This document shows, in pieces, positions 6,411-33,655 of a DNA stretch of 64,000 nt. Within the stretch, counting starts at the first letter, position 1; each line of letters starts with the position of its first letter. The position numbers and the translations under genes are program-made. The stretch is from an uncultured Candidatus Binatia bacterium (GTDB lineage Bacteria > Desulfobacterota > Binatia > Bin18): assembly GCA_965200355.1 (NCBI GenBank), contig OZ241351.1, forward strand, positions 1,564,163 through 1,628,162, written 5' to 3'. Below the pieces are notes generated by a model. It made no database searches, was not told where the DNA came from, and saw only the letters and a list, made by a program, of their open reading frames with translations.

Positions 6411-7853
6411 ATGCGGACATTGTTCTTGAATCCACCTGCGTATGAAAACTTCGATGGAGGCGCCGGCTCACGCTATCAGGCGACTCGGGAGGTCTGGTCG
6501 TTCTGGTACCCGACCTGGCTGTGCTATCCGGCCGGCATGATTGACAACAGCCGCGTTCTGGACGCCCCGCCCGAAGGCTTGAATCAGGCCCAGACCGTTG
6601 AAATCGCCCAAGCGTACGATTTTGTTGTGCTGCACACCAGTACCCCGTCGGTCAAACTGGATGCGCAGACCGCGGAGTTAATAAAAGAAAAGAATCCGGC
6701 CTGCCACATCGCCTTTGTGGGCGGTCAGGCCACGGCTGAGACGGAGAAGACCTTACAGATTTCTGAGGCCATTGATATCGTCGCGCGAAAAGAGTTTGAC
6801 TACTCCATGAAGGAAGTCGCTGAGGGCTGGGAGTGGAAAGATATCCGCGGCATCAGCTATCGTCAGGACGGACACATCCATCACAATCTTGACCGTCCGA
6901 CGCTGACCAATGAAGAGCTTGACCAATTGCCCTTTGTCACCCAGATTTATGATCGGGATTTGGACTTCCGCAAGTATAACAGCCCGTATTGCCAGTATCC
7001 GTATGTGTCGTTATACACCGGCCGGGGCTGTCCGGCGCGCTGTACGTTTTGTCTGTGGCCGCAGGTGACCACCGGCCATTCCTACCGCACCCGCTCGGTG
7101 GGCAATGTCATTGAGGAAGTGCAGGAAATGCAGCGCCTCTTTCCAGGGATGAAAGAAGTCTTCTTTGATGACGACACGTTTACGGCCGACCCGAAACGCG
7201 CCCGTGAGATCGCCAAAAAAATGGGCCGTCTCGGCCTGTGCTGGTCCACGAATGCCCGCGGCAATGTTGACTACGAGACCCTCAAGGTGCTGAAAGATGG
7301 CGGGCTGCGGCTGTTTGTGGTCGGCTATGAGTCGGGCAACGCTGCCATTCTCAAAAATATCAAAAAAGGCGTGGCCCTCGAAACCTCGCGGCGGTTTACG
7401 CGGGACTGCCACCAGCTTGGTATCCTGATCCACGGCACCTTTATTCTGGGCCTGCCGGGAGAAACCCGTGAGACCATGCAGGAGACCATGCGTTTCGCCC
7501 GGGAGATGAATCCAGAAACCATTCAGGTCTCCTTGGCTTCCCCCTATCCTGGCACCGCCTTCTACGATTTCGCCCTTGACAACGGCTATATCAAGGCCGA
7601 GGACATGGTGGGTGAGTCGGGCTATCAGCAGTGCGTGATTAACTATCCCAACCTGTCCGGGGAAGAAATTTTTGAAACGGTTGAGAAATTTTACCGCTCG
7701 TACTACCTCCGTCCGCGCTATATCTTCAAAGCCGTCAAAAAGATGGCGCGCGACCCGGAGGAGCGCAAACGGATGTGGCAGGAAGGCAAAGATTTTTTCC
7801 GTACCATGCGCAAACGGCGGGAGATGAACGTCTCGTCTTCTCCGGCGGTCTAG
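6411..7853 (+). CDS. hpnJ: Hopanoid-biosynthesis-associated B12-binding radical SAM protein HpnJ (cyclitol-ether/ring-contraction enzyme)
   Basis: 480 aa. N-terminal B12-binding-like domain plus radical SAM core (YTGRGCPARCTFC). The conserved C-terminal region is typical of the HpnJ family. Immediately followed by a GT2/GT21 glycosyltransferase (hpnI) and a YdjC-family gene (hpnK), the canonical hpnIJK context. Confidence 0.75.
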   Translation: MRTLFLNPPAYENFDGGAGSRYQATREVWSFWYPTWLCYPAGMIDNSRVLDAPPEGLNQAQTVEIAQAYDFVVLHTSTPSVKLDAQTAELIKEKNPACHIAFVGGQATAETEKTLQISEAIDIVARKEFDYSMKEVAEGWEWKDIRGISYRQDGHIHHNLDRPTLTNEELDQLPFVTQIYDRDLDFRKYNSPYCQYPYVSLYTGRGCPARCTFCLWPQVTTGHSYRTRSVGNVIEEVQEMQRLFPGMKEVFFDDDTFTADPKRAREIAKKMGRLGLCWSTNARGNVDYETLKVLKDGGLRLFVVGYESGNAAILKNIKKGVALETSRRFTRDCHQLGILIHGTFILGLPGETRETMQETMRFAREMNPETIQVSLASPYPGTAFYDFALDNGYIKAEDMVGESGYQQCVINYPNLSGEEIFETVEKFYRSYYLRPRYIFKAVKKMARDPEERKRMWQEGKDFFRTMRKRREMNVSSSPAV

Positions 7854-7878
7854 CGCGTCTCCTCCCGACCGGGGGGAG

Positions 7879-9108
7879 ATGGTGTCTGACTTCCATGTCC
7901 CACAAGAAGACACCTGCCCCAACGCTGGAGATTGGGAGAGGATGGGGACGTTTATTCTGCTGATCGTCTTCTGGTTCCTGGCCGGCCTGCTGTGCTGTGC
8001 CCTGGCCTATTGCCTCTTTAGTGTCTATGCGGCCTGGCGCTTTTTCCGCTCGCGTCCGACGCCTCCCACTCCCCTGCCCCCGGTCACGATGCTCAAGCCG
8101 CTCAAAGGCGCACCGCCCGACCTGTATGACAGTCTGGCAAGCTTTTGCCAGCTCGATTACCCGACTTTTCAAATCCTGTGCGGCGTCCGTGACCCCGATG
8201 ACCCGGCCGCGGCGGTTGTGACCAAAGTGCAGCACGACTTTCCCCAGTGCGATATTTCCCTGGTTGTTGCGCCGGCGGTGATTGGGACCAATTACAAGGT
8301 CAGCACCCTGCACCACCTGACCGCCCAGATGAAGTATGACTATCTGGTCATTACCGATAGTGATGTCCGGGTTGCCCCCGACTACTTGCGAACAATCATC
8401 CCCCCCTTGACCCAGCCGGAAACCGGACTGGTGACCTGTGTGTATCGCGGCGGTTCCCGCCGGCCCGTACCAGCCCTGCTGGAATCGCTGATGATTAACA
8501 CGACTTTTACCACCCAGGTCGTGGTCGCCAGCCAGGTAGAACAGCCCTCGTATGCCTTTGGCGCAACCATGGCGCTTAAACGCGCCGGCCTCGACGCGAT
8601 TGGGGGGTTTGCCCGGCTGTCTGATTATCTGGCAGACGACTATTATCTTGGATATTTCATTGCCCAGGCTGGGTATCAGATTCGCGTGCTGCCCGCTGTC
8701 GTGGAAACCCGCCCAGACGCGGGTTCGTTGCGCGAGTTGTTTACTCATCAGTTGCGTTGGGCGCGGACGCAACGCAACTGTCGGCCCGGCGGGTATATCG
8801 GGACGGTGGTGACGTTTGGCACGGTCTGGGCCGGCGTCAGCTTGGGCTGTTTTTGGGCGTCGGTCGAGATGACGGTTCTTGCCCTCAGCGTCCTCGGGCT
8901 ACGCCTGCTGAGCGCTGCTCTGATGAACGCGGTTTTTCTCCAATCGAGGCTGCCGCGGTCGGCTCTTCTGCTGACCCCACTCACCGACCTGATCTCTTTT
9001 GTGGTCTGGTGTGCCAGCTTGTGGGGCAACACGGTCCGTTGGCGGGAGTATACCTTCCGGCTCAAAAAAGATGGGCGTATGGTGCGCGTCAGTTCAGTTA
9101 AGCCCTGA
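7879..9108 (+). CDS. hpnI: Hopanoid-associated family-2/21 glycosyltransferase HpnI (N-acetylglucosaminyl transferase onto bacteriohopanetetrol)
   Basis: N-terminal TM helix. GT-A fold motifs (YLVITDSDV DxD-like, QLRWARTQ). Membrane C-terminus. The start may be the ATG at 7942, which has a GGGAGAGG SD. Gene order hpnJ-hpnI-hpnK. Confidence 0.7.
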   Translation: MVSDFHVPQEDTCPNAGDWERMGTFILLIVFWFLAGLLCCALAYCLFSVYAAWRFFRSRPTPPTPLPPVTMLKPLKGAPPDLYDSLASFCQLDYPTFQILCGVRDPDDPAAAVVTKVQHDFPQCDISLVVAPAVIGTNYKVSTLHHLTAQMKYDYLVITDSDVRVAPDYLRTIIPPLTQPETGLVTCVYRGGSRRPVPALLESLMINTTFTTQVVVASQVEQPSYAFGATMALKRAGLDAIGGFARLSDYLADDYYLGYFIAQAGYQIRVLPAVVETRPDAGSLRELFTHQLRWARTQRNCRPGGYIGTVVTFGTVWAGVSLGCFWASVEMTVLALSVLGLRLLSAALMNAVFLQSRLPRSALLLTPLTDLISFVVWCASLWGNTVRWREYTFRLKKDGRMVRVSSVKP

Positions 9109-24700: not shown

Positions 24701-25361
24701 CCACTCCCTGGCCGGCCAACATCGTTCCCATGGTTTCAATCGTGACCGAGACGGCAACCGGGACGCGGAGCCCGACCGTCCGAAACGCAGCGTCAACCCC
24801 CAAGAGGCCGGCTTTCAGGTTGAGGGTATCCTGGGTCGTTTCCATCAGCAGTAGGTCAACGCCCCCCCGGAGCAGGCCGGCTGCTTGTTCCGCATAGGCG
24901 TGCCGCAGTTGGCCGAAGGTCGTCCCGCCGGTGACTGAAATCGTTTTGGTCGTTGGCCCCATGGAGCCGGCCACAAAGCGGGGCCGGTGTGGAGAGCTGT
25001 GACGACGGGCACAGGTCTGGGCGAGTTGGGCCGCGGTCTGGTTAATGGCACTCGTCTGCTCGTGCAGACCATACTCGGCCAGGACGATACGCGACGCGCC
25101 AAAGGTATTCGTTTCAATGATATCCGCCCCGGCCCGCAAGAAGTCGTCGTGAATCTGGGTGATGGCGTCAGGGCAAGTCAACACCAAGTGTTCATTGCAG
25201 CCTTCGTAGGCCAGCCCGCCGAAATTGTCCGGGCTCAGATTTTGGGCCTGGATAGATGTCCCCATAGCGCCGTCAAAGAGCAGGACCCGCTCACGCAGGA
25301 GGGCGCACAGGTCACGCGCCCGGGCCGATAACGAAGGCAGTCTGTCGTTCACATTGCCCAC
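21756..25361 (-). CDS. metH: Cobalamin-dependent methionine synthase MetH (1201 aa)
   Basis: Homocysteine-binding, pterin-binding, B12-binding (GDVHDIGKN) and AdoMet-activation domains, in canonical order. Confidence 0.9.
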   Translation of the reverse strand: MGNVNDRLPSLSARARDLCALLRERVLLFDGAMGTSIQAQNLSPDNFGGLAYEGCNEHLVLTCPDAITQIHDDFLRAGADIIETNTFGASRIVLAEYGLHEQTSAINQTAAQLAQTCARRHSSPHRPRFVAGSMGPTTKTISVTGGTTFGQLRHAYAEQAAGLLRGGVDLLLMETTQDTLNLKAGLLGVDAAFRTVGLRVPVAVSVTIETMGTMLAGQGVEALYTSVAHRDLLALGLNCATGPDFMTDHLRTLAAFSRFPTLCIPNAGLPDEEGHYNESPQMVVAKLERFVDAGWLNMLGGCCGTTPAHIALLSQMLEGKPPRRPPTTTRSVVSGLEPLVIDEDKRPVLVGERTNVIGSRKFKRLIRDGAFEEGAEIGRRQVRGGAHIVDVCLADPDREERGDMTAFLDMLVRKIKVPLMIDSTDTQVIEAALERSQGKAIINSINLEDGEERFAQVVPLLKRYGAAVVVGCIDEDPEQGMAVTRQRKLAVAKRSYALLTQKYGLVAEDIIFDPLVFPLGTGDRNYIGAGEETIAGVRLIKHALPACKTILGISNVSFGLPPAGREVLNSVFLYHCVKAGLDLAIVNTEKLERYASIVEAEKRLANDLIYWHGPDPVAAFAAHFRHKKESTVRDTRADLPLDERLARSIIEGSKDGLIDDLNTALTERAPLDIINGPLMAGMDKVGRLFNNNELIVAEVLQSAEAMKAAVGHLEPFMEKKGEGVQHPEGAGPVSASPDGGLKGTVLLATVKGDVHDIGKNLVEIILANNGYRVVNLGIKVAPETLIEAVRTHQPDLVGLSGLLVKSAQQMVVTAQDLTTAQVSCPLLVGGAALTPRFTANKIAPEYAGLVCYANDAMRGLDLANQIMDADRRGALLRDLEKERARLARPARAPQPGAAETPAIQPTLLSHAQPAPHPPDLRLHTLDAYDLDAIFAYLNPTMLYGKHLGLKGNLETLLAQGDKKAGELHQQVQAVIDEVVAKKLLRARAVYQFFPAQADGDRLRLYRANGQEIAATFVFPRQQHGEGLCLSDFVAPASSGEQDYIALFAVTCGHGVRELAAQYREAGRYLQSHILQALAIEGAEAFAELLHQRLRAMWGFADPPELTMRERFKARYRGVRVSFGYPACPRLEDQAGLFRVLPITAAIGVGLTEGYMMEPEASVSALVFHHPQAKYFTILDDELAAFERRLAERTNDLSVAAL

Positions 25362-25481
25362 CCAAGTCCTGAAGGGGCACCCGTGTCAACATCTGTATAG
25401 CGATTGGGGGACACGGTGACGCTTTTCCTTATACGGAGGCCGACGTGGAGCATACAGGGAATGCAGACGGCCGTCTCAAAC

Positions 25482-25515
25482 GGCACTACGCGCAGCATTG
25501 ACCGCGCGTAGTGCC
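25482..25515. promoter_or_regulatory. Perfect 12-bp-arm palindrome (GGCACTACGCGC-N10-GCGCGTAGTGCC) in the divergent metH/res intergenic region; candidate operator
   Basis: Read directly. A second 10-bp palindrome GACGGCCGTC sits at 25466-25475. No adjacent U-tract on either strand, so a terminator is unlikely. Confidence 0.35.
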
Positions 25516-25746
25516 GCCTCTTATATACGCCGAGAAATTGCTTGTCTAATGGGGTAGGGGTGTGGACGGGGGACGGTCAACAGAGAAGGAGAAAATGTCG
25601 GGACGGTCTCAATCGGGATTGCCACCACACAGGCGAAGCGCTAGGGGAGAGGAGCGAGGGCCTGTCCCTGTCACTTTTTGCCGAAGAGTCCGCTGGACCA
25701 GGAATGTTCCGAACACAGAAAAAACCACCCAAGGGAAGGACGGCGA

Positions 25747-28700
25747 TATGGCCGACCAGAGCCAGCCGGAGGGCGCGCTCGTCCAATCTGAGAAAACGGC
25801 CGCTCGTCAGTCTTCCTTCCCGGAGCCAGGCGTTCTGATGGACCAGCGCTTCTTCCAACAGCCTGTTTTGAATTCGCCCTACGAGTATCCCAGGCAGCAC
25901 TGGGAGCTTGATGAGCAGGGACAGCCAACCCAGCGGATCATCGCAACCCGCCGCCGGGCCGAGTTTATTACGCCCATTCCAAAGCCGCGCAAACGCAAAG
26001 GCTCCGCGCACCAGCAGTCACTCGCCTTAGATGAAGGCCACGGACTCTCAACCGCTGAGCAGCAGTACGACCCGACCTCCATTATCACCGCGCTCCGTCG
26101 TCAGGTGGACCAGTGGCGCAGCCGACCGAATCCGGCCGACTGGCAGGTGACACCCGAGACCGCTCGTCTGCTGCAACACTGGAGACAGCATCAGTTCAGC
26201 ACTATCCGGCCCTTCTTCTGTCAAGTGGAAGCCGTGGAAACCGCGATCTGGCTGACCGAGGTTGCTCCGAGAGCGGGCAAGACCGGCAAGGATTTTCTGG
26301 CACATCTCACCAACGCCAATACCGACGCCAATCCGGGTTTACAGCGCGTGGCGCTCAAGCTCGCCACCGGCGCGGGCAAGACCACGGTTCTTGCCATGCT
26401 GATCGCCTGGCAGACCATCAACGCGGTCCGCCGCCCAACGAGCAGAAGATTTACCCGTGGCTTTCTGGTCGTTACGCCCGGTTTGACGATCCGTGACCGG
26501 CTGCGCGTCCTGCAACCGAACGACCCGGACAGCTATTACGCCAGCCGGGAGCTGGTGCCGGGCGATATGCGCGGCGACCTCAGCCGGGCCAAAATCGTCA
26601 TTACCAACTATCACGCCTTCAAGCGGCGTGAGCGCATGGCGCTTTCAAAAGGCGGTCGCTCGTTGCTCCAGGGGCGCGGGGCCGCCTTGAACACCTTGGA
26701 GACCGAAGGGCAGATGCTTCAGCGCGTCATGCCCGACCTGATGGGCCTGAAAAATATCGTGGTGATGAACGATGAGGCCCACCACTGCTACCGCGAGAAA
26801 CCGGAAAAAGATGACGAAGGAATACTGAAAGGCGACGAGCGAAAAGAAGCGGAGAAAAACAATGAGGCGGCGCGGCTGTGGATTTCTGGCCTGGAAGCCG
26901 TGGGCCGCACGCTGGGTCTGGCGCGGATTATCGACGTATCGGCCACACCGTTCTTTCTGCGCGGCTCGGGCTATGCCGAGGGCACGCTGTTTCCCTGGAC
27001 GATGAGCGACTTTTCCCTCATGGACGCCATCGAATGCGGAATTGTCAAGCTGCCCCGGGTGCCGGTGGCAGACAACATCCCTGGCGGCGAAATGCCGAAA
27101 TTCCGCAATCTGTGGCAACATATTCGACCCCGGATGCCGAAAAAGGGCCGGGGCAAAGCCAAGACCCTTGACCCGCTCAGCCTGCCGGTTGCACTCCAGA
27201 CCGCCCTGGACGCCCTGTACGGCCATTACCAACAGACCTCTGCGTTATGGCAGCAGAAGGGCATTCAGGTGCCGCCCTGTTTTATCGTGGTGTGCAATAA
27301 CACCTCGACCTCCAAGCTGGTGTATGACTATATCTCCGGCTTTTGGCGGGACAATGACGACGGTTCACCGACACTCGAGCATGGCCGCTTGCCGCTGTTC
27401 CGAAACCATGAGGCCGACGGGACTCAATTGGCGCGTCCGCGTACCCTCCTCATCGACAGCCAGCAACTCGAATCCGGGGCTGCCCTGGACACCAATTTTC
27501 GGGCGATGGCGTCAGATGAGATAGCACGCTTCCGCCGCGAGATTATCGAACGGACCGGCGACCATCGCCAGGCCGAAAACCTGTCTGACCAAGACCTGCT
27601 GCGGGAAGTCATGAACACGGTCGGCAAGCCGGGCCGGTTGGGCGCGTCGATTCGTTGCGTGGTGTCGGTTTCCATGCTGACCGAAGGCTGGGACGCCAAC
27701 ACGGTCACGCACGTGTTAGGCGTGCGCGCCTTTGGCACGCAATTATTGTGCGAACAGGTCATTGGGCGGGCCTTGCGCAGGCAATCCTACACGCTGAATG
27801 AGAAGGGGCTGTTGAATGTGGAATACGCCGATGTGCTGGGGATTCCGTTTGACTTTACCGCCAAGCCGGTTGTTGCTCCGCCCCAAACGCCCCGCGAGAC
27901 CGTGCAGGTTCAAGCGGTGCGGCCCGACCGCGACCATTTGGCCATTCAGTTTCCCCGGGTCGCCGGCTATCTCGTTGAACTGCCGGAGGAACGACTCAGC
28001 GTGCAGTTCAACGCCGATTCCGTTCTGGAATTGACCCCAGACCTGGTTGGCCCCTCAATGACCCGGAACGCGGACATTATTGGCGCGGATGTTGACCTGA
28101 GCCTGAAGCATCTGGACAACCTGCGTTCCTCAACCGTGGCGTTCCACGTGACCAAGCGCCTGCTCTACACCAAATGGCGCGACCCTGGCGCAGCACCGAA
28201 GCTCCACTTATTCGGGCAGTTGAAACGCATTTCGGGCAGTTGAAACGCATCACCACGCAATGGCTGGCGACCTGTCTGGTCTGCAAAGGCCGGACCTACC
28301 CCGCTCAACTCCTGTATCAGGAGCTGGCCGATATGGCCTGCGAGCGCATTACTGCTGGTATCACCCGTTCCGTCATCGGCGACCGGCCCGTAAAAGCCGT
28401 GTTGGACCCCTACAATCCCACCGGCTCGACCACGCACGTGCACTTCCATACCTCCAAAGCGCACCGCTGGCAGACGGATGCCCGGCGGTGTCATATCAAC
28501 TGGGTCATCCTCGACAGCGATTGGGAGGCCGAATTCTGCCGGGTGGTTGAGTCGCACCCCGCGGTGCGGGCCTATGTGAAAAATCACAACCTCGGCCTGG
28601 AGGTGCCCTACCGCTCCGGCTCGACCCTGCGGACCTATATTCCCGACTTTATCGTGCTGCTGAACGACGGGCATGACGACCCGTTGCATCTGATTGTTGA

Positions 28701-28854
28701 GATCAAAGGCTATCGGGGCGAGGACGCCAAGTACAAGAAGGCGACGATGGAGACCTACTGGATTCCCGGCGTGAATAATCATGGGCAGTATGGCCGCTGG
28801 GCGTTTGCCGAGTTTACTGCGGTTTATGATATTGAGCGGGAATTGGGGATGTGA
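25747..28854 (+). pseudogene. res: Type III restriction enzyme Res subunit (SF2 DEAH helicase + C-terminal PD-(D/E)xK nuclease), frameshifted by a 20-bp tandem duplication
   Basis: Walker A (KLATGAGKTT) and DEAH (VVMNDEAHHCY). C-terminal PDF...IVEIKG nuclease motif lies in ORF 28174..28854. The two ORFs join seamlessly if one copy of TTCGGGCAGTTGAAACGCAT is removed. Confidence 0.8.
28211..28250 (+). repeat. Perfect 20-bp tandem duplication (TTCGGGCAGTTGAAACGCAT x2) inside res, creating TGA at 28241-28243
   Basis: Read directly: 28211-28230 equals 28231-28250. Confidence 0.95.
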
Positions 28855-28885
28855 GGGGTTAGTGGATAGTGGGGAGTGGGGAGCG
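28855..28885. repeat. GGGGTTAGTGGATAGTGG repeat copy immediately 3' of res (same family as the repeats flanking the four-helix-bundle cassette)
   Basis: TGAGGGGTTAGTGGATAGTGGGGAGTGGGGA directly follows the res stop codon. Confidence 0.7.
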
Positions 28886-31190
28886 ATTCTTCTACGAGGC
28901 GATTGAAGGCTGTCTGTGTTCCTCCGGCAAAGCGCTTGACGGTCGGTAAGTAATAGATTATCCGCCCCTTGAGAGTACGCTGTGCTCCTCGCGATCACGA
29001 GCCGGCCGAAATCCTGGGGCTTTTTTATGCTTGCCCGCTGGACACAATTCTATGCCTCGAAAAGCGAAGAAGACGGCCAAGACGGTTGAAACTCTGCGGC
29101 ACCCCGACGCCTCGCGTAAGAACATCCCCACGGCTGAGTTTCAGGCGGTGATGCGTAAGGACGAACAGAGTCCGATTCAGGTTGCCTATGAGCGGCGCAA
29201 CCGCGACCTGGACCCGTAACTGGTGTGGCGGGGGAAGGATGAACAGGACGGGGCGGATTTGGTGGTGCAGGCTCCGCCGTTGTACATTCAGGAGAAGGTG
29301 CATCCGAAGGTGTTGATTGACGATTTGCGGCAGCGCAGCAAGGAGACCGGCGACGCGAGCGCGCAGCCGGATTTGTTCGCGGATTTTAACGGGCTGCCGA
29401 GCGCGGACGCGCAGACCGAGTTTTATCAGCACGACGCCAACTGGTCGAACCGGATGATTTTGGGCGATAGCTTGCAGGTGATGGCGTCGCTGGCCGAACG
29501 CGAGGGCCTGCGCGGCAAGGTGCAGTGCATTTACCTTGACCCGCCTTACGGCATCAAGTTCAACAGCAACTTTCAGTGGTCAACCACGAGCCGCGATGTC
29601 AAGGACGGGAAGGCAGACCACATCACGCGGGAGCCGGAGCAGGTGAAGGCGTTTCGGGATACGTGGCGGGATGGGATTCATTCGTATTTGACGTATTTGC
29701 GGGACCGGCTGACGGTGGCGCGGGATTTGTTGGCGGAGAGCGGTTCCATCTTCGTGCAGATTGGGGATGAGAATGTCCATCGGGTGCGGGCGGTGATGGA
29801 GGAAGTTTTCGGACAGGACAACCATATTGCAGATATTGTTGTCCTGAAGACAAGTAGCCAAACGTCCCAATACCTTGCTGGAATAGCTGACTATGTAGTT
29901 TGGTATGCCGTCGATAAGGAACGCTTGAAGTACCGGCAACTGAACAAATTCAAAAAGCTTGGAGAAACAGGAACAACCCAATACCTATGGGAACTATCGC
30001 TAGACTTACAGGAATCGCGGATATCTAAGGAACGGAATCCCAGAGGGCATGTGTTTGCCGCTGACAATCTCTCCAGTCAATCCGGCGGTGAAACGACTAG
30101 GTTTGAATTCACCGTATCAGGAAAGATATTTCGGGTCGCTAGAGGAGGCTGGAAGACGAACTTGCAAGGAATGAGGCGTCTGGAGAAAGCTCACAGACTC
30201 AAGCCAATTGGTAAATCCTTGATGTATCGGAGATTTTTGGACGATTTTCCAGTCTATCCTATCGCTAATGTCTGGGACGATGTCTTGGCGACAGGATTCT
30301 CTGAACAGAAGGTATATGTTGTTCAGAGTTCTCAGAAGCTAGTCCAACGCTGCGTCCTCATGACCACCGACCCCGGCGACCTCGTTCTTGACCCAACCTG
30401 CGGTTCTGGCACGACGGCCTACGTTGCTGAACAGTGGGGCCGGCGGTGGATTACGATTGATACGTCTCGCGTCGCCTTGGCCCTGGCCCGTGCCCGTATC
30501 ATGGGTGCTCGCTATCCCTACTACCTGCTCGCCGACAGCCGCGACGGCCAAATCAAAGAAGCCGCGCTGGCCCGCAAAGCTCCCTCGGAAGTGCCCATAT
30601 ACACCGACATCCGCCAAGGCTTCGTGTACGAGCGCGTCCCCCACATCACCCTCAAGGCCATCGCCAACAACGCCGAAATCGACGTAATATGGGAGAAATG
30701 GCAGGAGACGATTCAGCCGCTGCTTGAACAACTCGGAGCCATCGTCGGCGATTCGCCCCTACCGGAATGGGAAGTACCAAGAGACCTGCCGGACCCGTGG
30801 CCGCCGGAGGCTGCGCCGCTGCACGAACAATTCTGGACGGCGAGGGTGGCGCGTCAGCGCGAAATCGACGCCTCCATCGCGGCCAAAGCCGACTACGAGT
30901 ACCTCTACGACAAGCCCTACGAGGATAAGAAAAAAGTTCGGGTGGCCGGGCCGTTTACGGTCGAAAGCCTGTCTCCGCACCGGGTGTTGGGTGTCGATGA
31001 AAACGACGAACTCATCGACCGTGTAGCTGAAAGCACGGTCGGGTACGGCGAAAAGCAGGACTTCGCCGCAGTGATTCTGGAAAACCTCAAAACCGCCGGC
31101 GTGCAGCAGGCCCACAAAGACGACAAAATTACCTTCACCGCAATCACCCCCTGGCCGGGCGATTTGATCTGCGCCGAAGGCCGGTTTGAT

Positions 31191-31310
31191 AGTGGAGTAG
31201 GGGAGAAGGGAGAGTGGATAGAGGGGAAGTGGATAGTGGATAGAAGGGAAGTGGATAGTGGCGAGCAAGACAGCGAAAAACTATCCACTCTCCCCTCATC
31301 ACTATCCACT
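31191..31310. repeat. GTGGATAG-rich hairpin element (4 direct GTGGATAG copies opposed by CTATCCAC copies) lying in-frame inside mod
   Basis: GAGTGGATAGAGGGGAAGTGGATAGTGGATAGAAGGGAAGTGGATAGTG ... AACTATCCACTCTCCCCTCATCACTATCCACTG; a MITE-like inverted repeat. Confidence 0.75.
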
Positions 31311-31608
31311 GAAAATCGCGGCGCGATTTTCATCGGCCCGGAGTTTGGTACGGTCTCGCGCCCGGATTTGGTGGCTGCGGCTCGTGAAGCCGCGGAGGGC
31401 GGTTTTGACGCGCTGATTACTTGCGCCTTCAATTACGACGCGCGCTCGTCCGAGTTTGACAAGCTCGGTCACATTCCTGTGCTCAAAGCTCGCATGAACG
31501 CCGACCTGCATATGGCCGACGATCTGAAGAACACTGGCAAGGGCAATTTGTTCGTCATTTTTGGCGAGCCGGATATTACCGTGGCGAGTGAAGAGTGGTT
31601 AGTGGATA

Positions 31609-32001
31609 GTGTCGGAAACAGAATTGCTCCGTATGACATCTTTACGCTCGTATCGGGACTTGACGGTTTGGCAGAAATCAATGGACTTGACGGTGAGGAT
31701 TTACGCGCTGACGCAGCGCTTTCCTGCCGACGAGAAATATGGGATTACCTCACAAATGCGGCGGGCGGCGTCCTCGATTCCGGCGAACATCGCGGAAGGG
31801 CAGGCAAGGCGCACGACGGGGGAGTTTCTTCAGTCGCTTGGCATTGCGCGGGGCTCGCTGGCAGAACTGGAGACCTTTCTGACCTTATCCGAAAGGCTGG
31901 AGTTGATCGACAAGAAGGCTTCCGAGACCTTGTTGAACGACTGCGCCGAGATAAACAGAATGCTCTACGCCCTGATGCGCTCACTAACCCCTATCCACTA
32001 A
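31609..32001 (+). CDS. Four-helix-bundle protein (TIGR02436 / 23S-rRNA-intervening-sequence protein family)
   Basis: 130 aa with YRDLTVWQKSMDLTVRIYALTQRFPADEKYGITSQMRRAASSIPANIAEGQARRTTGEFLQSLGIARGSLAELETFL, characteristic of the IVS-encoded four-helix-bundle family. It lies in a frame different from mod and is bounded by GGTTAGTGGATAGTG (31596-31610) on the left and a CTAACCCCTATCCAC tandem array on the right. Confidence 0.8.
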   Translation: MSETELLRMTSLRSYRDLTVWQKSMDLTVRIYALTQRFPADEKYGITSQMRRAASSIPANIAEGQARRTTGEFLQSLGIARGSLAELETFLTLSERLELIDKKASETLLNDCAEINRMLYALMRSLTPIH

Positions 32002-32071
32002 CCCCTATCCACTAACCCCTAACCCCTATCCACTAACCCCTATCCACTATCCACTAACCCCTATCCACTAC
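31982..32071. repeat. Tandem array (~6 copies) of the 14-15-bp unit CTAACCCCTATCCAC (reverse complement GTGGATAGGGGTTAG)
   Basis: Read directly; forms the right border of the four-helix-bundle cassette. Confidence 0.9.
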
Positions 32072-32348
32072 TCTCAGGTCACGGTCCACGGGGTGGACGT
32101 ATATCCCAACACCGGCGAAATCCGTAGCGACAGTGCCGACGGCATTGCCTGCTGGTTTATCGACACCGACTACAACGAAGAGAGTTTCTTCGTTCGTCAC
32201 GCCTATTTCCTCGGTGCCAACGATCCCTATAAGGCGCTCAAGACGACCCTCAAAGCCGAGATTAACGCAGACGCCTGGGCAACCCTCAACCGCGACACCT
32301 CCCGCCCGTTCGCCAAACCGGAGTCGGGCCGGATTGCGGTCAAGGTCA

Positions 32349-32687
32349 TCAATCACCTGGGGGATGAGGTGATGAAGGTGTTTCGACTCGACTAAAGGCA
32401 TTCTCTCTCGTATCAAAAGTCAGAGATACCTGGGTGCCGAGCTGACGTAAAACCGCGTCTATCGTGCCGGCCTTGGTGGCATGGTCCGGGTTCAGCATAC
32501 GTCGCACCTCGTTTTCGCCAACGTCCAGGGCGCGGGCGAGGCAACGTTGTGAGATGTTGGCCTGACGATAGGCTTCGTAGAGGGCCGCTTTGAGGACGAT
32601 CTGTAATGGCGGGATGACCAACGGCCGCCGCGTGCTGGCGCGTGTGGGCTCGGGTAAGGCCCGGCCCTCGCAGACCGTCGTTGCCAT
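32349..32687 (-). CDS. HicB-like antitoxin / XRE-type HTH protein; upstream reading frame stays open to 32813 without a canonical start
   Basis: C-terminal HTH (ISQRCLARALDVGENEVRRMLN). The in-frame upstream extension ...GRFIVTFPDFGWGATDGATCEEALEEAKDLLRELMATT resembles the HicB N-domain but contains no ATG or GTG. No hicA-like partner was recognised. Confidence 0.4.
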   Translation of the reverse strand: MATTVCEGRALPEPTRASTRRPLVIPPLQIVLKAALYEAYRQANISQRCLARALDVGENEVRRMLNPDHATKAGTIDAVLRQLGTQVSLTFDTRENAFSRVETPSSPHPPGD

Positions 32688-32815
32688 CAGTTCCCGCAGT
32701 AAGTCCTTGGCCTCTTCCAGCGCCTCCTCACAGGTCGCGCCATCAGTGGCCCCCCAACCAAAGTCGGGAAACGTGACGATAAACCGCCCGTCTTCGACAG
32801 GCAGAAGGACACTCT

Positions 32816-33655
32816 CTAGCGATTATCCCCGAACGCGGCGTCGCGCTCCTTGGCCCGCTTGGACCCGGAAAAGGTGTCTTCGCCCTTTTCCAGCCGATAC
32901 ATGCGGGTGAGGGCGTATGACTGAAACGCGCCGGTGACGCCGGTCCGAAAGCCAGCTTCGTCCTGCATCTGGTTCACCGAGAATTTGGCGATCCGCAGTG
33001 CATAGGCATCTTGCAGGGCGATCCGCTGAGCGAGCTTGCGCGTCTCTGCGGCGAGCTGGTCGCGCGGCACAACCTCGTTGACCAGCCCAAGCCGCTCGGC
33101 CTCTGCCGCGGTAATCCAATCGCCAGTAAAGAGATATTGCTTGGCTTTGCGAAAGCCGATGTCCCAGGCTAGACTGGCGTACTGGACATGGGCCCCCGCC
33201 CAGCGGACCGTGCGGTCGCAAAACTTGGCATCGTCCGCAGCGATAATGAGATCACAGGCCGAGGCCAACATCAGCCCGCCCATAATGCAGTAGCCCTGGA
33301 CTTGGGCAATGGTCGGTTTGGGGCAATCCCGCCAGCGCAGGGTGCAGTCGAGATAGAGGTCCCGGCCGCGTTTATATTCACCCGGCATTCCCTGTGGATA
33401 CGGACGCTTTTTCCAGTCCTCCCGTTCTTGCGGCGTCCCAATGTCATGGCCGGCAGAAAAATGCTTGCCGGCGCCGGCCACGATAATGACTTTGACCGAC
33501 TCGTCTTCCGCGGCGGCGGCCAGGGCCTGATCAAACTCTTCCAGCATCAACCGACTCTGGGCATTGAGTGCCTCAGGGCGGTTGACGGTGATGGTCAGGA
33601 CCGCCTCATCCTGTTGCTGGGTCAGGGTTGTATAGCTCATAATTCCCTCCTTCAT
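32816..33655 (-). CDS. Enoyl-CoA hydratase/isomerase (crotonase) family protein
   Basis: VKVIIVAGAGKHFSAGHDIG oxyanion-hole motif; 279 aa. Confidence 0.85.
   Translation of the reverse strand: MKEGIMSYTTLTQQQDEAVLTITVNRPEALNAQSRLMLEEFDQALAAAAEDESVKVIIVAGAGKHFSAGHDIGTPQEREDWKKRPYPQGMPGEYKRGRDLYLDCTLRWRDCPKPTIAQVQGYCIMGGLMLASACDLIIAADDAKFCDRTVRWAGAHVQYASLAWDIGFRKAKQYLFTGDWITAAEAERLGLVNEVVPRDQLAAETRKLAQRIALQDAYALRIAKFSVNQMQDEAGFRTGVTGAFQSYALTRMYRLEKGEDTFSGSKRAKERDAAFGDNR

Follow-up and report, generated by a model that had tools for sequence, protein, structure and literature searches.

A very probable nonsense mutation at an invariant glutamine codon of mod in a disrupted type III restriction-modification operon

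We analyzed a window of 64,000 nucleotides (nt), which is the whole stretch of DNA taken from contig OZ241351.1 of assembly GCA_965200355.1; all coordinates are window positions on the forward (+) strand. The host is a diderm bacterium with 60% G+C, and the window contains an operon which, as judged from its sequence, is a restriction-modification (R-M) system of type III, consisting of a BPTD_3080-family restriction gene (res) followed by a PADLOC MTase_III methyltransferase gene (mod). Within mod, the codon of the invariant residue Gln56 is replaced by a TAA stop. We conclude that the T at position 29217 is very probably a genuine C-to-T nonsense mutation of this codon, and that the operon is an ordinary, recently killed type III R-M system. 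The parts of mod that adjoin the stop are the following.

29052 to 29216, + strand: mod 5′ fragment of 55 codons from ATG 29052–29054, seen in the translation as the conserved N-terminal extension (NIPTAE ... YERRNRDLDP).
29217 to 29219, + strand: TAA in place of the invariant Gln56 codon, based on the sequence, the homolog alignment, and independent assemblies.
29223 to 31583, + strand: mod body from the candidate restart codon GTG to the junction of an inserted cassette (after GEPDITV), with the N6-adenine methyltransferase domain PF01555 (1.9e-31).

The 55 sense codons of the 5′ fragment translate as MPRKAKKTAKTVETLRHPDASRKNIPTAEFQAVMRKDEQSPIQVAYERRNRDLDP and keep every invariant residue of this stretch (H17, R22, P26, A28, E29, Y46, R49, N50, D52, L53, D54, and P55). 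Past the TAA the reading frame is unchanged and continues with CTG GTG TGG ..., which translates as LVWRGKDEQ..., i.e. LVWRGKDEQDGADLVV.... As the first-pass annotation of this DNA had described, the N-terminal codons and the remaining mod sequence share one frame with a single stop between them (ATG 29052, 55 codons, TAA, LVWRGKDEQ...). The coordinates given there for the stop were correct, but its assignment to codon ~57 was off by one, the affected codon being number 56.

Homologs were searched with the repaired N-terminal 712 residues of Mod as query, and the best 119 of thousands of matches (67–86% identity, 923–1109 amino acids (aa)) were aligned. In addition, genomic codons were surveyed at 80 loci taken from representatives of GTDB species in many phyla, and the motif around the Gln codon could be placed in 79 of them; the GTDB loci among the matches listed are relatives at 60–70% identity. 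The proposed CAA-to-TAA nonsense change is borne out by these alignments, as the Gln56 column, which lies within the invariant motif RNRDLDPQLVWRGKD, contains Gln in all 119 proteins and a Gln codon at all 79 located loci (CAG in 44, CAA in 35, and a stop in none). Among the closer relatives whose DNA was compared at this codon, CAA is used at loci L082, L083, and L084 and CAG at L085 and L096, and the exact DNA context of the window, GACCCGCAACTGGT, is present at several GTDB loci. Since the homologs have CAA or CAG at this position, one C>T transition (CAA to TAA) suffices to create the stop. The homologs returned included no stop-free allele of the window lineage (the next best match is 86% identical), and no genome of the same species with an intact mod allele was present among the GTDB matches listed. 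A scan for promoters and terminators around TAA 29217 yielded nothing informative.

Degenerate 5′ ends of mod were also observed elsewhere. Locus L100 (GCA_964619935.1, contig CAZUGO010000004.1, positions 728–990; protein P0188) contains a mod 5′ remnant of ~230 nt that carries TAG at the same Gln codon and reads RNRDLAP*LVWRGKDEQD, with the remaining mod gene deleted. It was found through the selection of products ending near the Gln position and is an independent dead copy. At locus L053 of a Verrucomicrobia metagenome-assembled genome (positions 1003–1221), a second degenerate mod 5′ end that includes the LVWRGK motif lies ~8 kb upstream of the intact gene. The idea that the 55-codon fragment of the window is a duplicated 5′ end, left behind when cargo genes inserted themselves between res and mod, was rejected because a second copy was found at only one of 94 loci.

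A sequencing error at position 29217 had been named as an observation that would overturn the nonsense mutation. Tracing the 55-aa product by exact sequence lookup recovered it in other assemblies, and the 5′ fragment is annotated as a 55-aa gene in five of them. The same T occurs in an ENA long-read metagenome contig (ERZ25068762:ctg89951_3x, 8.5 kb), which matches the window to 99.965% and departs from it solely by three C-homopolymer indels in res, and in four Logan contigs of ~19 kb from runs SRR33960551, -52, -53, and -54. The latter are 100% identical to the window from 25052 to 29314–29458, and all four carry TAA 29217 together with the duplication in res that is described below. Some observations could speak for an error of sequencing or assembly, with C as the true base and mod uninterrupted at this point: C/T miscalls at methylated motifs are a known artefact of nanopore sequencing, the genome and the ENA contig may both be nanopore assemblies, and the ENA contig has three C-homopolymer errors. 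However, the change at 29217 is a substitution and not a homopolymer indel, and the T is shared by six assemblies that stem from two or more projects, among them the four assemblies of SRA runs with 100% identity over 4.3 kb. Moreover, the two other lesions of the operon, a 20-bp duplication and a repeat expansion, are atypical of basecalling errors; the duplication is found in every assembly that covers its site, and the expansion in both assemblies that cover its site, the window and the ENA contig. An error at 29217 is thus very unlikely, and as an objection it fails.

The four Logan contigs end 95–240 nt past the TAA at slightly differing positions (29314–29458). This first break falls in the most conserved part of mod and may result from k-mers common to other mod genes in the samples, or from low coverage. 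On the far side, the Logan contigs (three shown, and one at a similar place) start at 32020, within a repeat array.

As had been stated for Mod N-termini of this type, the homologs read through the position of the stop: none of the 119 starts at or after it. Homologs with a downstream start, the other observation named as overturning the mutation, were accordingly not seen among them. The full N-terminal extension is present in 118 of them, and the exception (P0018) still initiates upstream of the Gln. This conservation bears on the alternative that mod is a functional split gene, in which translation terminates at the TAA and reinitiates at GTG 29223, the first start codon 3′ of the stop, so that a truncated Mod, alone or together with the 55-aa peptide in trans, methylates DNA. 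The arrangement would permit this in so far as stop and GTG are 3 nt apart, a spacing that allows termination-reinitiation, and as the DPPY and S-adenosylmethionine (AdoMet) motifs lie downstream. The longest downstream open reading frame (ORF), from GTG 29223 to 32015, encodes 930 aa and is what gene callers annotate (P0001). However, the 57 residues lost by such a restart hold 13 invariant positions, and the L-V-W-R-G-K motif would be cut. The GTG has no Shine-Dalgarno match (−3.0 kcal/mol, equal to the native start), and TAA 32013 would still cut the product short of the conserved C-terminus of 107 residues. In EcoP15I, the N-terminal helices of Mod intertwine in the interface of the Mod2 dimer, and one Mod touches Res through its C-terminal domain (PMC4490356); these roles may count against a functional truncated Mod by analogy only, as the respective regions of this protein family show no alignment with EcoP15I. 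When the 55-aa peptide was searched against 1.84 billion representatives, 837 matches were obtained, and most of the best 150 listed were short. Each of the 20 shortest stops at the end of its contig or continues into an unrelated tail, and none resembles a conserved stand-alone peptide. Judging by these sequence features, reinitiation at GTG 29223 would be unlikely and would not rescue the gene, and a functional split gene has only a slight chance of being the correct explanation.

Many short database proteins (among P0121–P0270, e.g., P0128, P0141, P0161, P0198, and P0234) share the N-terminal ~55 residues and diverge into unrelated sequence at or just past DLDPQ. Such proteins may be artefacts of assembly, caused by contig ends or by chimerism in highly conserved DNA, or they may come from disrupted genes.

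The stop is located exactly where Gln is required, and near-cognate readthrough of UAA typically inserts Gln. These two points would fit programmed recoding, i.e., TAA being read as Gln through codon reassignment, a suppressor tRNA, or readthrough. However, no homolog has a stop at Gln56 (119 proteins and 79 loci), nine of the window's 40 open segments with 300 codons or more end in TAA, as does an ORF within the mod cassette, the window contains no tRNA gene, and a frameshift farther downstream in mod would defeat any readthrough. Codon reassignment was rejected because TAA is a normal terminator in this genome. We regard the chance that the TAA is a recoding signal as negligible.

The nonsense mutation is accompanied by a second lesion upstream, in res, which is split as follows.

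25748 to 28243, + strand: res 5′ fragment, the superfamily 2 (SF2) helicase part (PF04851 ResIII), 831 codons as called.
28211 to 28250, + strand: perfect tandem duplication, 2 x 20 bp, of TTCGGGCAGTTGAAACGCAT (Tandem Repeats Finder (TRF): period 20, 2.0 copies, 100% match), which frameshifts res.
28174 to 28854, + strand: res 3′ fragment with the endonuclease domain PF19778 RE_endonuc, out of frame with the 5′ fragment and matching positions 763–966 of 970 in NF046055.

The open frame of res reaches upstream to GTG 25562, and gene calls on the Logan contigs likewise give the 5′ fragment as a gene of 831 aa. Against the NCBIfam profile NF046055 (BPTD_3080 family restriction endonuclease; cut-off 800 bits) the 5′ fragment scores 1098 bits at profile positions 1–773 of 970. 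The two fragments abut on this profile (1–773 and 763–966) and together cover positions 1–966, and the GAGKT, DEAH, and PD...EIK motifs are readable in the Res translations. When one 20-bp copy is deleted, a single res frame of 1090 codons results, which is collinear with the res genes of relatives (query residues 93–1089). The duplication, which is found in all five other assemblies of the strain that cover the res site, can be retained as a lesion, as in the first reading of this locus.

The third lesion lies in the 3′ part of mod, where the gene contains an insert that resembles the intervening sequences (IVS) of 23S rRNA genes and encodes a homolog of the S23p/intervening-sequence protein (IVP) family.

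31584 to 32071, + strand: IVS-like cassette of 488 nt with flanking inverted repeats of 7-nt units; junctions from the homolog alignment.
31609 to 32001, + strand: S23p/23S-rRNA-IVP four-helix-bundle ORF in the +1 frame relative to mod (PF05635, 1.9e-40; TIGR02436, 2.1e-39; NF008911, 2e-44).
31982 to 32070, + strand: array of 14-nt (7+7) repeats, CACTAACCCCTATC x 6.4 (TRF and sequence), which shifts the downstream mod frame by +2.
32072 to 32395, + strand: mod 3′ fragment of 107 codons (SQVTVHGVDV...ACWFIDTDYNEESFFVRHAYF...VFRLD*), in frame +2 versus the mod body.

The 3′ fragment aligns with the C-termini of all homologs. Of the 120 best homologs, 17 carry an in-frame insert at the same site, after GEPDI(T/S)V, and in six homologs with intact mod its lengths are 450, 450, 450, 477, 477, and 483 nt, all multiples of three. 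The 14-nt array is 56 nt longer in the window than in L082 and L084 (56 extra alignment columns). Owing to this longer array, the insert measures 488 nt (488 mod 3 = 2), and TAA 32013–32015 is brought into the mod frame. The insertion of the cassette, which the first-pass annotation had counted as a lesion, is therefore not what disrupts mod; it is the expansion of the repeat array at the 3′ end of the cassette that breaks the gene at this place. Hence, the count of three independent lesions stands, whereas the third of them is a repeat expansion and not the cassette.

Two of the three lesions, the 20-bp duplication and the 14-nt array, are changes in repeat number that are in principle revertible by slippage or recombination, and type III mod genes are classic phase-variable methylases (PMC12707154). 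The lesions could accordingly be regarded as switches in a reversible OFF state of a phase-variable system instead of decay. However, the TAA at Gln56 arose by substitution of a single base, which no repeat mechanism would reverse, and all three lesions would have to revert together. The copy number of the duplication is constant in every assembly covering it, and that of the 14-nt array is equal in the window and the ENA contig, the only two assemblies that span the array, as the short-read contigs break inside it. Furthermore, since each 14-nt unit contains a TAA and 14 mod 3 = 2, no reading frame stays open across three or more perfect units. A reversible OFF state is for these reasons highly improbable.

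To date the inactivation, repaired Mod and Res proteins, in which the stop was read as Gln and the frames were mended, were compared with their homologs in a leave-one-out manner at otherwise invariant columns. Mod departs at two of 306 such columns (35 homologs; range in intact homologs 0–9), and Res at two of 224 (55 homologs; range 0–8, median 1). Just past the cassette junction (32072–32110), a nearly invariant His is absent from the window protein, which reads GVDVY-PNTGE versus GVDVFHPNTGE in the homologs, and N850H is present; R807H is located upstream of the junction. This missing His, N850H, and R807H are the only departures from conserved columns in the window Mod. As no missense decay was detectable in Mod or Res, the inactivation appears to be recent. 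The earlier interpretation as relaxed selection or active decay is consequently upheld in one respect, inactivation by several lesions, but a long period of decay is not, given that both proteins remain within the range of intact homologs. By the sequence evidence, mod is a recently formed pseudogene: it has a stop at a position through which homologs read and a reproduced lesion, and no excess of substitutions at conserved sites was found.

Based on these features, translation from the native ATG 29052 would stop after 55 residues. A restart at GTG 29223 would produce a Mod without the conserved N-terminal 57 residues, and the break in the array at 31982–32070 would deprive this product of the conserved C-terminal 107 residues as well. 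As res is independently split by the 20-bp tandem duplication, the system is predicted to be genetically dead in both activities, with a presumed loss of methylation and restriction. The order of the lesions and the neutrality of the later ones we infer as well; at most one lesion need have been selected or have drifted first. Because type III Res relies on Mod for target recognition, a cell is not killed by losing one of the two genes, whichever goes first. In EcoP15I the two subunits form a Mod2Res1 architecture (PMC4490356).

Several points weigh against this interpretation. A minority C allele at 29217 is possible, as the evidence consists of assemblies. The NCBI genome and the SRR runs are possibly not independent; the ENA long-read contig is from a different project. 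Weak readthrough of the UAA, with Gln as the residue most likely inserted, or a restart at GTG 29223 might possibly occur, going by the codons present. Finally, the conservation test is weak at separating a very recent from a moderately recent inactivation, because only a handful of neutral substitutions are expected beside three disabling events.

Nonsense inactivation of an R-M gene is an already known, ordinary kind of phenomenon. For the annotation of this genome, mod and res should be flagged as pseudogenes, and the ORF starting at GTG 29223 should not be listed as a 930-aa methyltransferase. The loss of the type III R-M system in this strain bears on the interpretation of any methylome of the organism. 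The locus also represents a clean case of very recent R-M loss, with three mechanistically different lesions and no missense decay.

The assignment to type III rests on both genes. Mod is a β-class N6-adenine methyltransferase, with motif IV (DPPY) upstream of the FxGxG-type AdoMet site of motif I; the mod body contains both the DPPY and the TCGSGTT AdoMet motif, and YLDPPYG (residues 161–167) and DPTCGSGTT (residues 447–455) are invariant in the homolog alignment. It scores 1328 bits against the PADLOC profile PDLC03632 MTase_III. Res combines an SF2 helicase/ATPase core with a C-terminal endonuclease domain. Both genes are adjacent on one strand (25748–32395), in an order common to relatives, and a res-mod pair of the same families was found at 78 loci or more in many phyla. 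Intact reading frames are lacking, as res is split and TAA 29217, the +2 shift, and TAA 32013 all interrupt mod. Among solved structures, the Mod profile matches EcoP15I Mod (4zcf) and Helicobacter pylori Mod (6k0w) best, with E about 1e-22, and the full profile matches solved type III Mods from profile position ~120 onward only. A search of solved structures with the N-terminal 167 residues of Mod gave no match even at E = 10. An AlphaFold2 model of the intact homolog P0003, built from a 60-sequence alignment, had a mean predicted local distance difference test (pLDDT) score of 48, with the N-terminus below 50; it was unusable and supports no claim.

The R-M locus is flanked by metH on one side and by a block of genes for enoyl-CoA hydratase, SIS, uvrB, and lptFG on the other; because of this position it is regarded as a chromosomal island. 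In the relatives L082, L083, L084, and L096–L099, small toxin-antitoxin or defence genes are often found between res and mod (PIN; HepT/MNT; Fic; M78 peptidase and DUF4411; HicB-like), and the same relatives often have a downstream pair of an AAA_15/AAA_21 ATPase and a UvrD helicase, which is Gabija-like. The R-M locus of the window has neither the toxin-antitoxin or defence genes between res and mod nor the downstream ATPase and UvrD pair.

While the stop itself is ordinary pseudogenisation, the in-frame S23p cassette is the more interesting part of the locus and deserves its own follow-up. Its inverted arms at 31579–31611 and 32045–32091 form a terminal stem of −38.2 kcal/mol, and terminal stems of −38 to −51 kcal/mol are present in seven of seven cassettes, built from two different classes of repeat units. 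In the relatives, the cassettes are located at 8440–8922 (L082), 8437–8913 (L083), 7476–7925 (L096), 7446–7895 (L097), 7446–7922 (L098), and 6845–7294 (L099). Through the insert, the mod frame is open in all six and the S23p frame in five; ~10–20 stops interrupt the third frame. Shuffling the synonymous codons of the S23p ORF left the mod frame free of stops in 3.5% of the trials for the window and 2.5% for L083. Two aberrant cassettes were noticed. In L084 (P0018), a 1-nt deletion at ~8590 joins the frames of mod and S23p, and this accounts for the database entry of a "Mod+IVP" fusion protein, and in L082 a 33-nt insert with a stop at ~8650–8680 breaks S23p, with mod staying open.

Repeat units of the same kind occur at two further sites.

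31188 to 31310, + strand: ORF-less hairpin made of the 7-nt units of the cassette, in frame within a variable loop of Mod and adding ~32 residues (protein alignment; inverted repeats I8–I13).
28856 to 28885, + strand: solitary patch of 7-nt units, GGGGTTAGTGGATAGTGGGGAGTGGGGAG, in the 197-nt spacer between res and mod (sequence; TRF period 7).

The hairpin has a minimum free energy of −51.2 kcal/mol (z = −4.3), was seen in this strain only, and resembles a miniature form derived from the cassette. Matches of the type AGTGGATAGTG number 14 in the 64-kb window versus 0.39 expected; all are in the R-M locus, and the spacer patch is one of them. An Rfam search of 25000–33000 at a permissive threshold produced only spurious, microRNA-precursor-like matches to the hairpin.

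The cassette has the S23p/IVP ORF, the terminal inverted repeats, and the heptameric repeats of an S23p IVS, and it is located inside mod and not in a 23S rRNA gene. No description of S23p/IVP genes within R-M genes was found in the searchable literature. Tentatively, and with somewhat less than even confidence, we suggest that the cassette is an element of the rRNA-IVS type that colonised a protein-coding gene and was kept as a dual-coding insert at one site of mod. If this is true, a Mod with an insert of ~150 residues translated from the alternative frame of S23p would be functional, and IVS elements would not be confined to rRNA. The retention of an IVS-like S23p element in frame in mod of many lineages could then extend the known host range of these poorly understood elements from rRNA to protein-coding genes, and cassette-bearing mod genes could offer a tractable system for studying the function of S23p and the hairpin.

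Among known systems, the operon is comparable to EcoP15I (Mod2Res1; PDB 4zcf) in its β-class N6-adenine Mod, in which DPPY precedes the AdoMet motif and the central region is variable, in its Res with an SF2 helicase and a C-terminal PD-(D/E)xK-type endonuclease, and in the adjacency of the two genes. It differs from EcoP15I in the gene order, which is res-mod versus mod-res, in the length of Mod (~930 versus 644 aa), and in the N-terminal 120 and C-terminal ~450 residues of Mod, which match no solved chain; moreover, both genes are broken in the window. The pair of families NF046055 and PDLC03632 is represented by res fragments covering profile positions 1–966 of 970 and a Mod scoring 1328 bits, with the difference that the member in the window is a pair of pseudogenes. 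With the phasevarions of Haemophilus, Neisseria, and Helicobacter the locus shares a type III mod ORF that is off through interruption of its frame, but phasevarions switch reversibly by simple sequence repeats (PMC12707154), whereas the window has a single-base nonsense change. The cassette, in turn, resembles the S23p-encoding IVS in the 23S rRNA of Coxiella and Leptospira (PMC4990558) in its size class (~430–490 nt), its terminal inverted repeats that form a long stem, its heptameric repeats of variable copy number, and its four-helix-bundle S23p/IVP ORF. In contrast to those elements, it resides in a protein-coding gene and not in helix 25 or 45 of 23S rRNA (PMC4990558), and in the intact homologs its length is divisible by three and the host gene's frame stays open along all of it.

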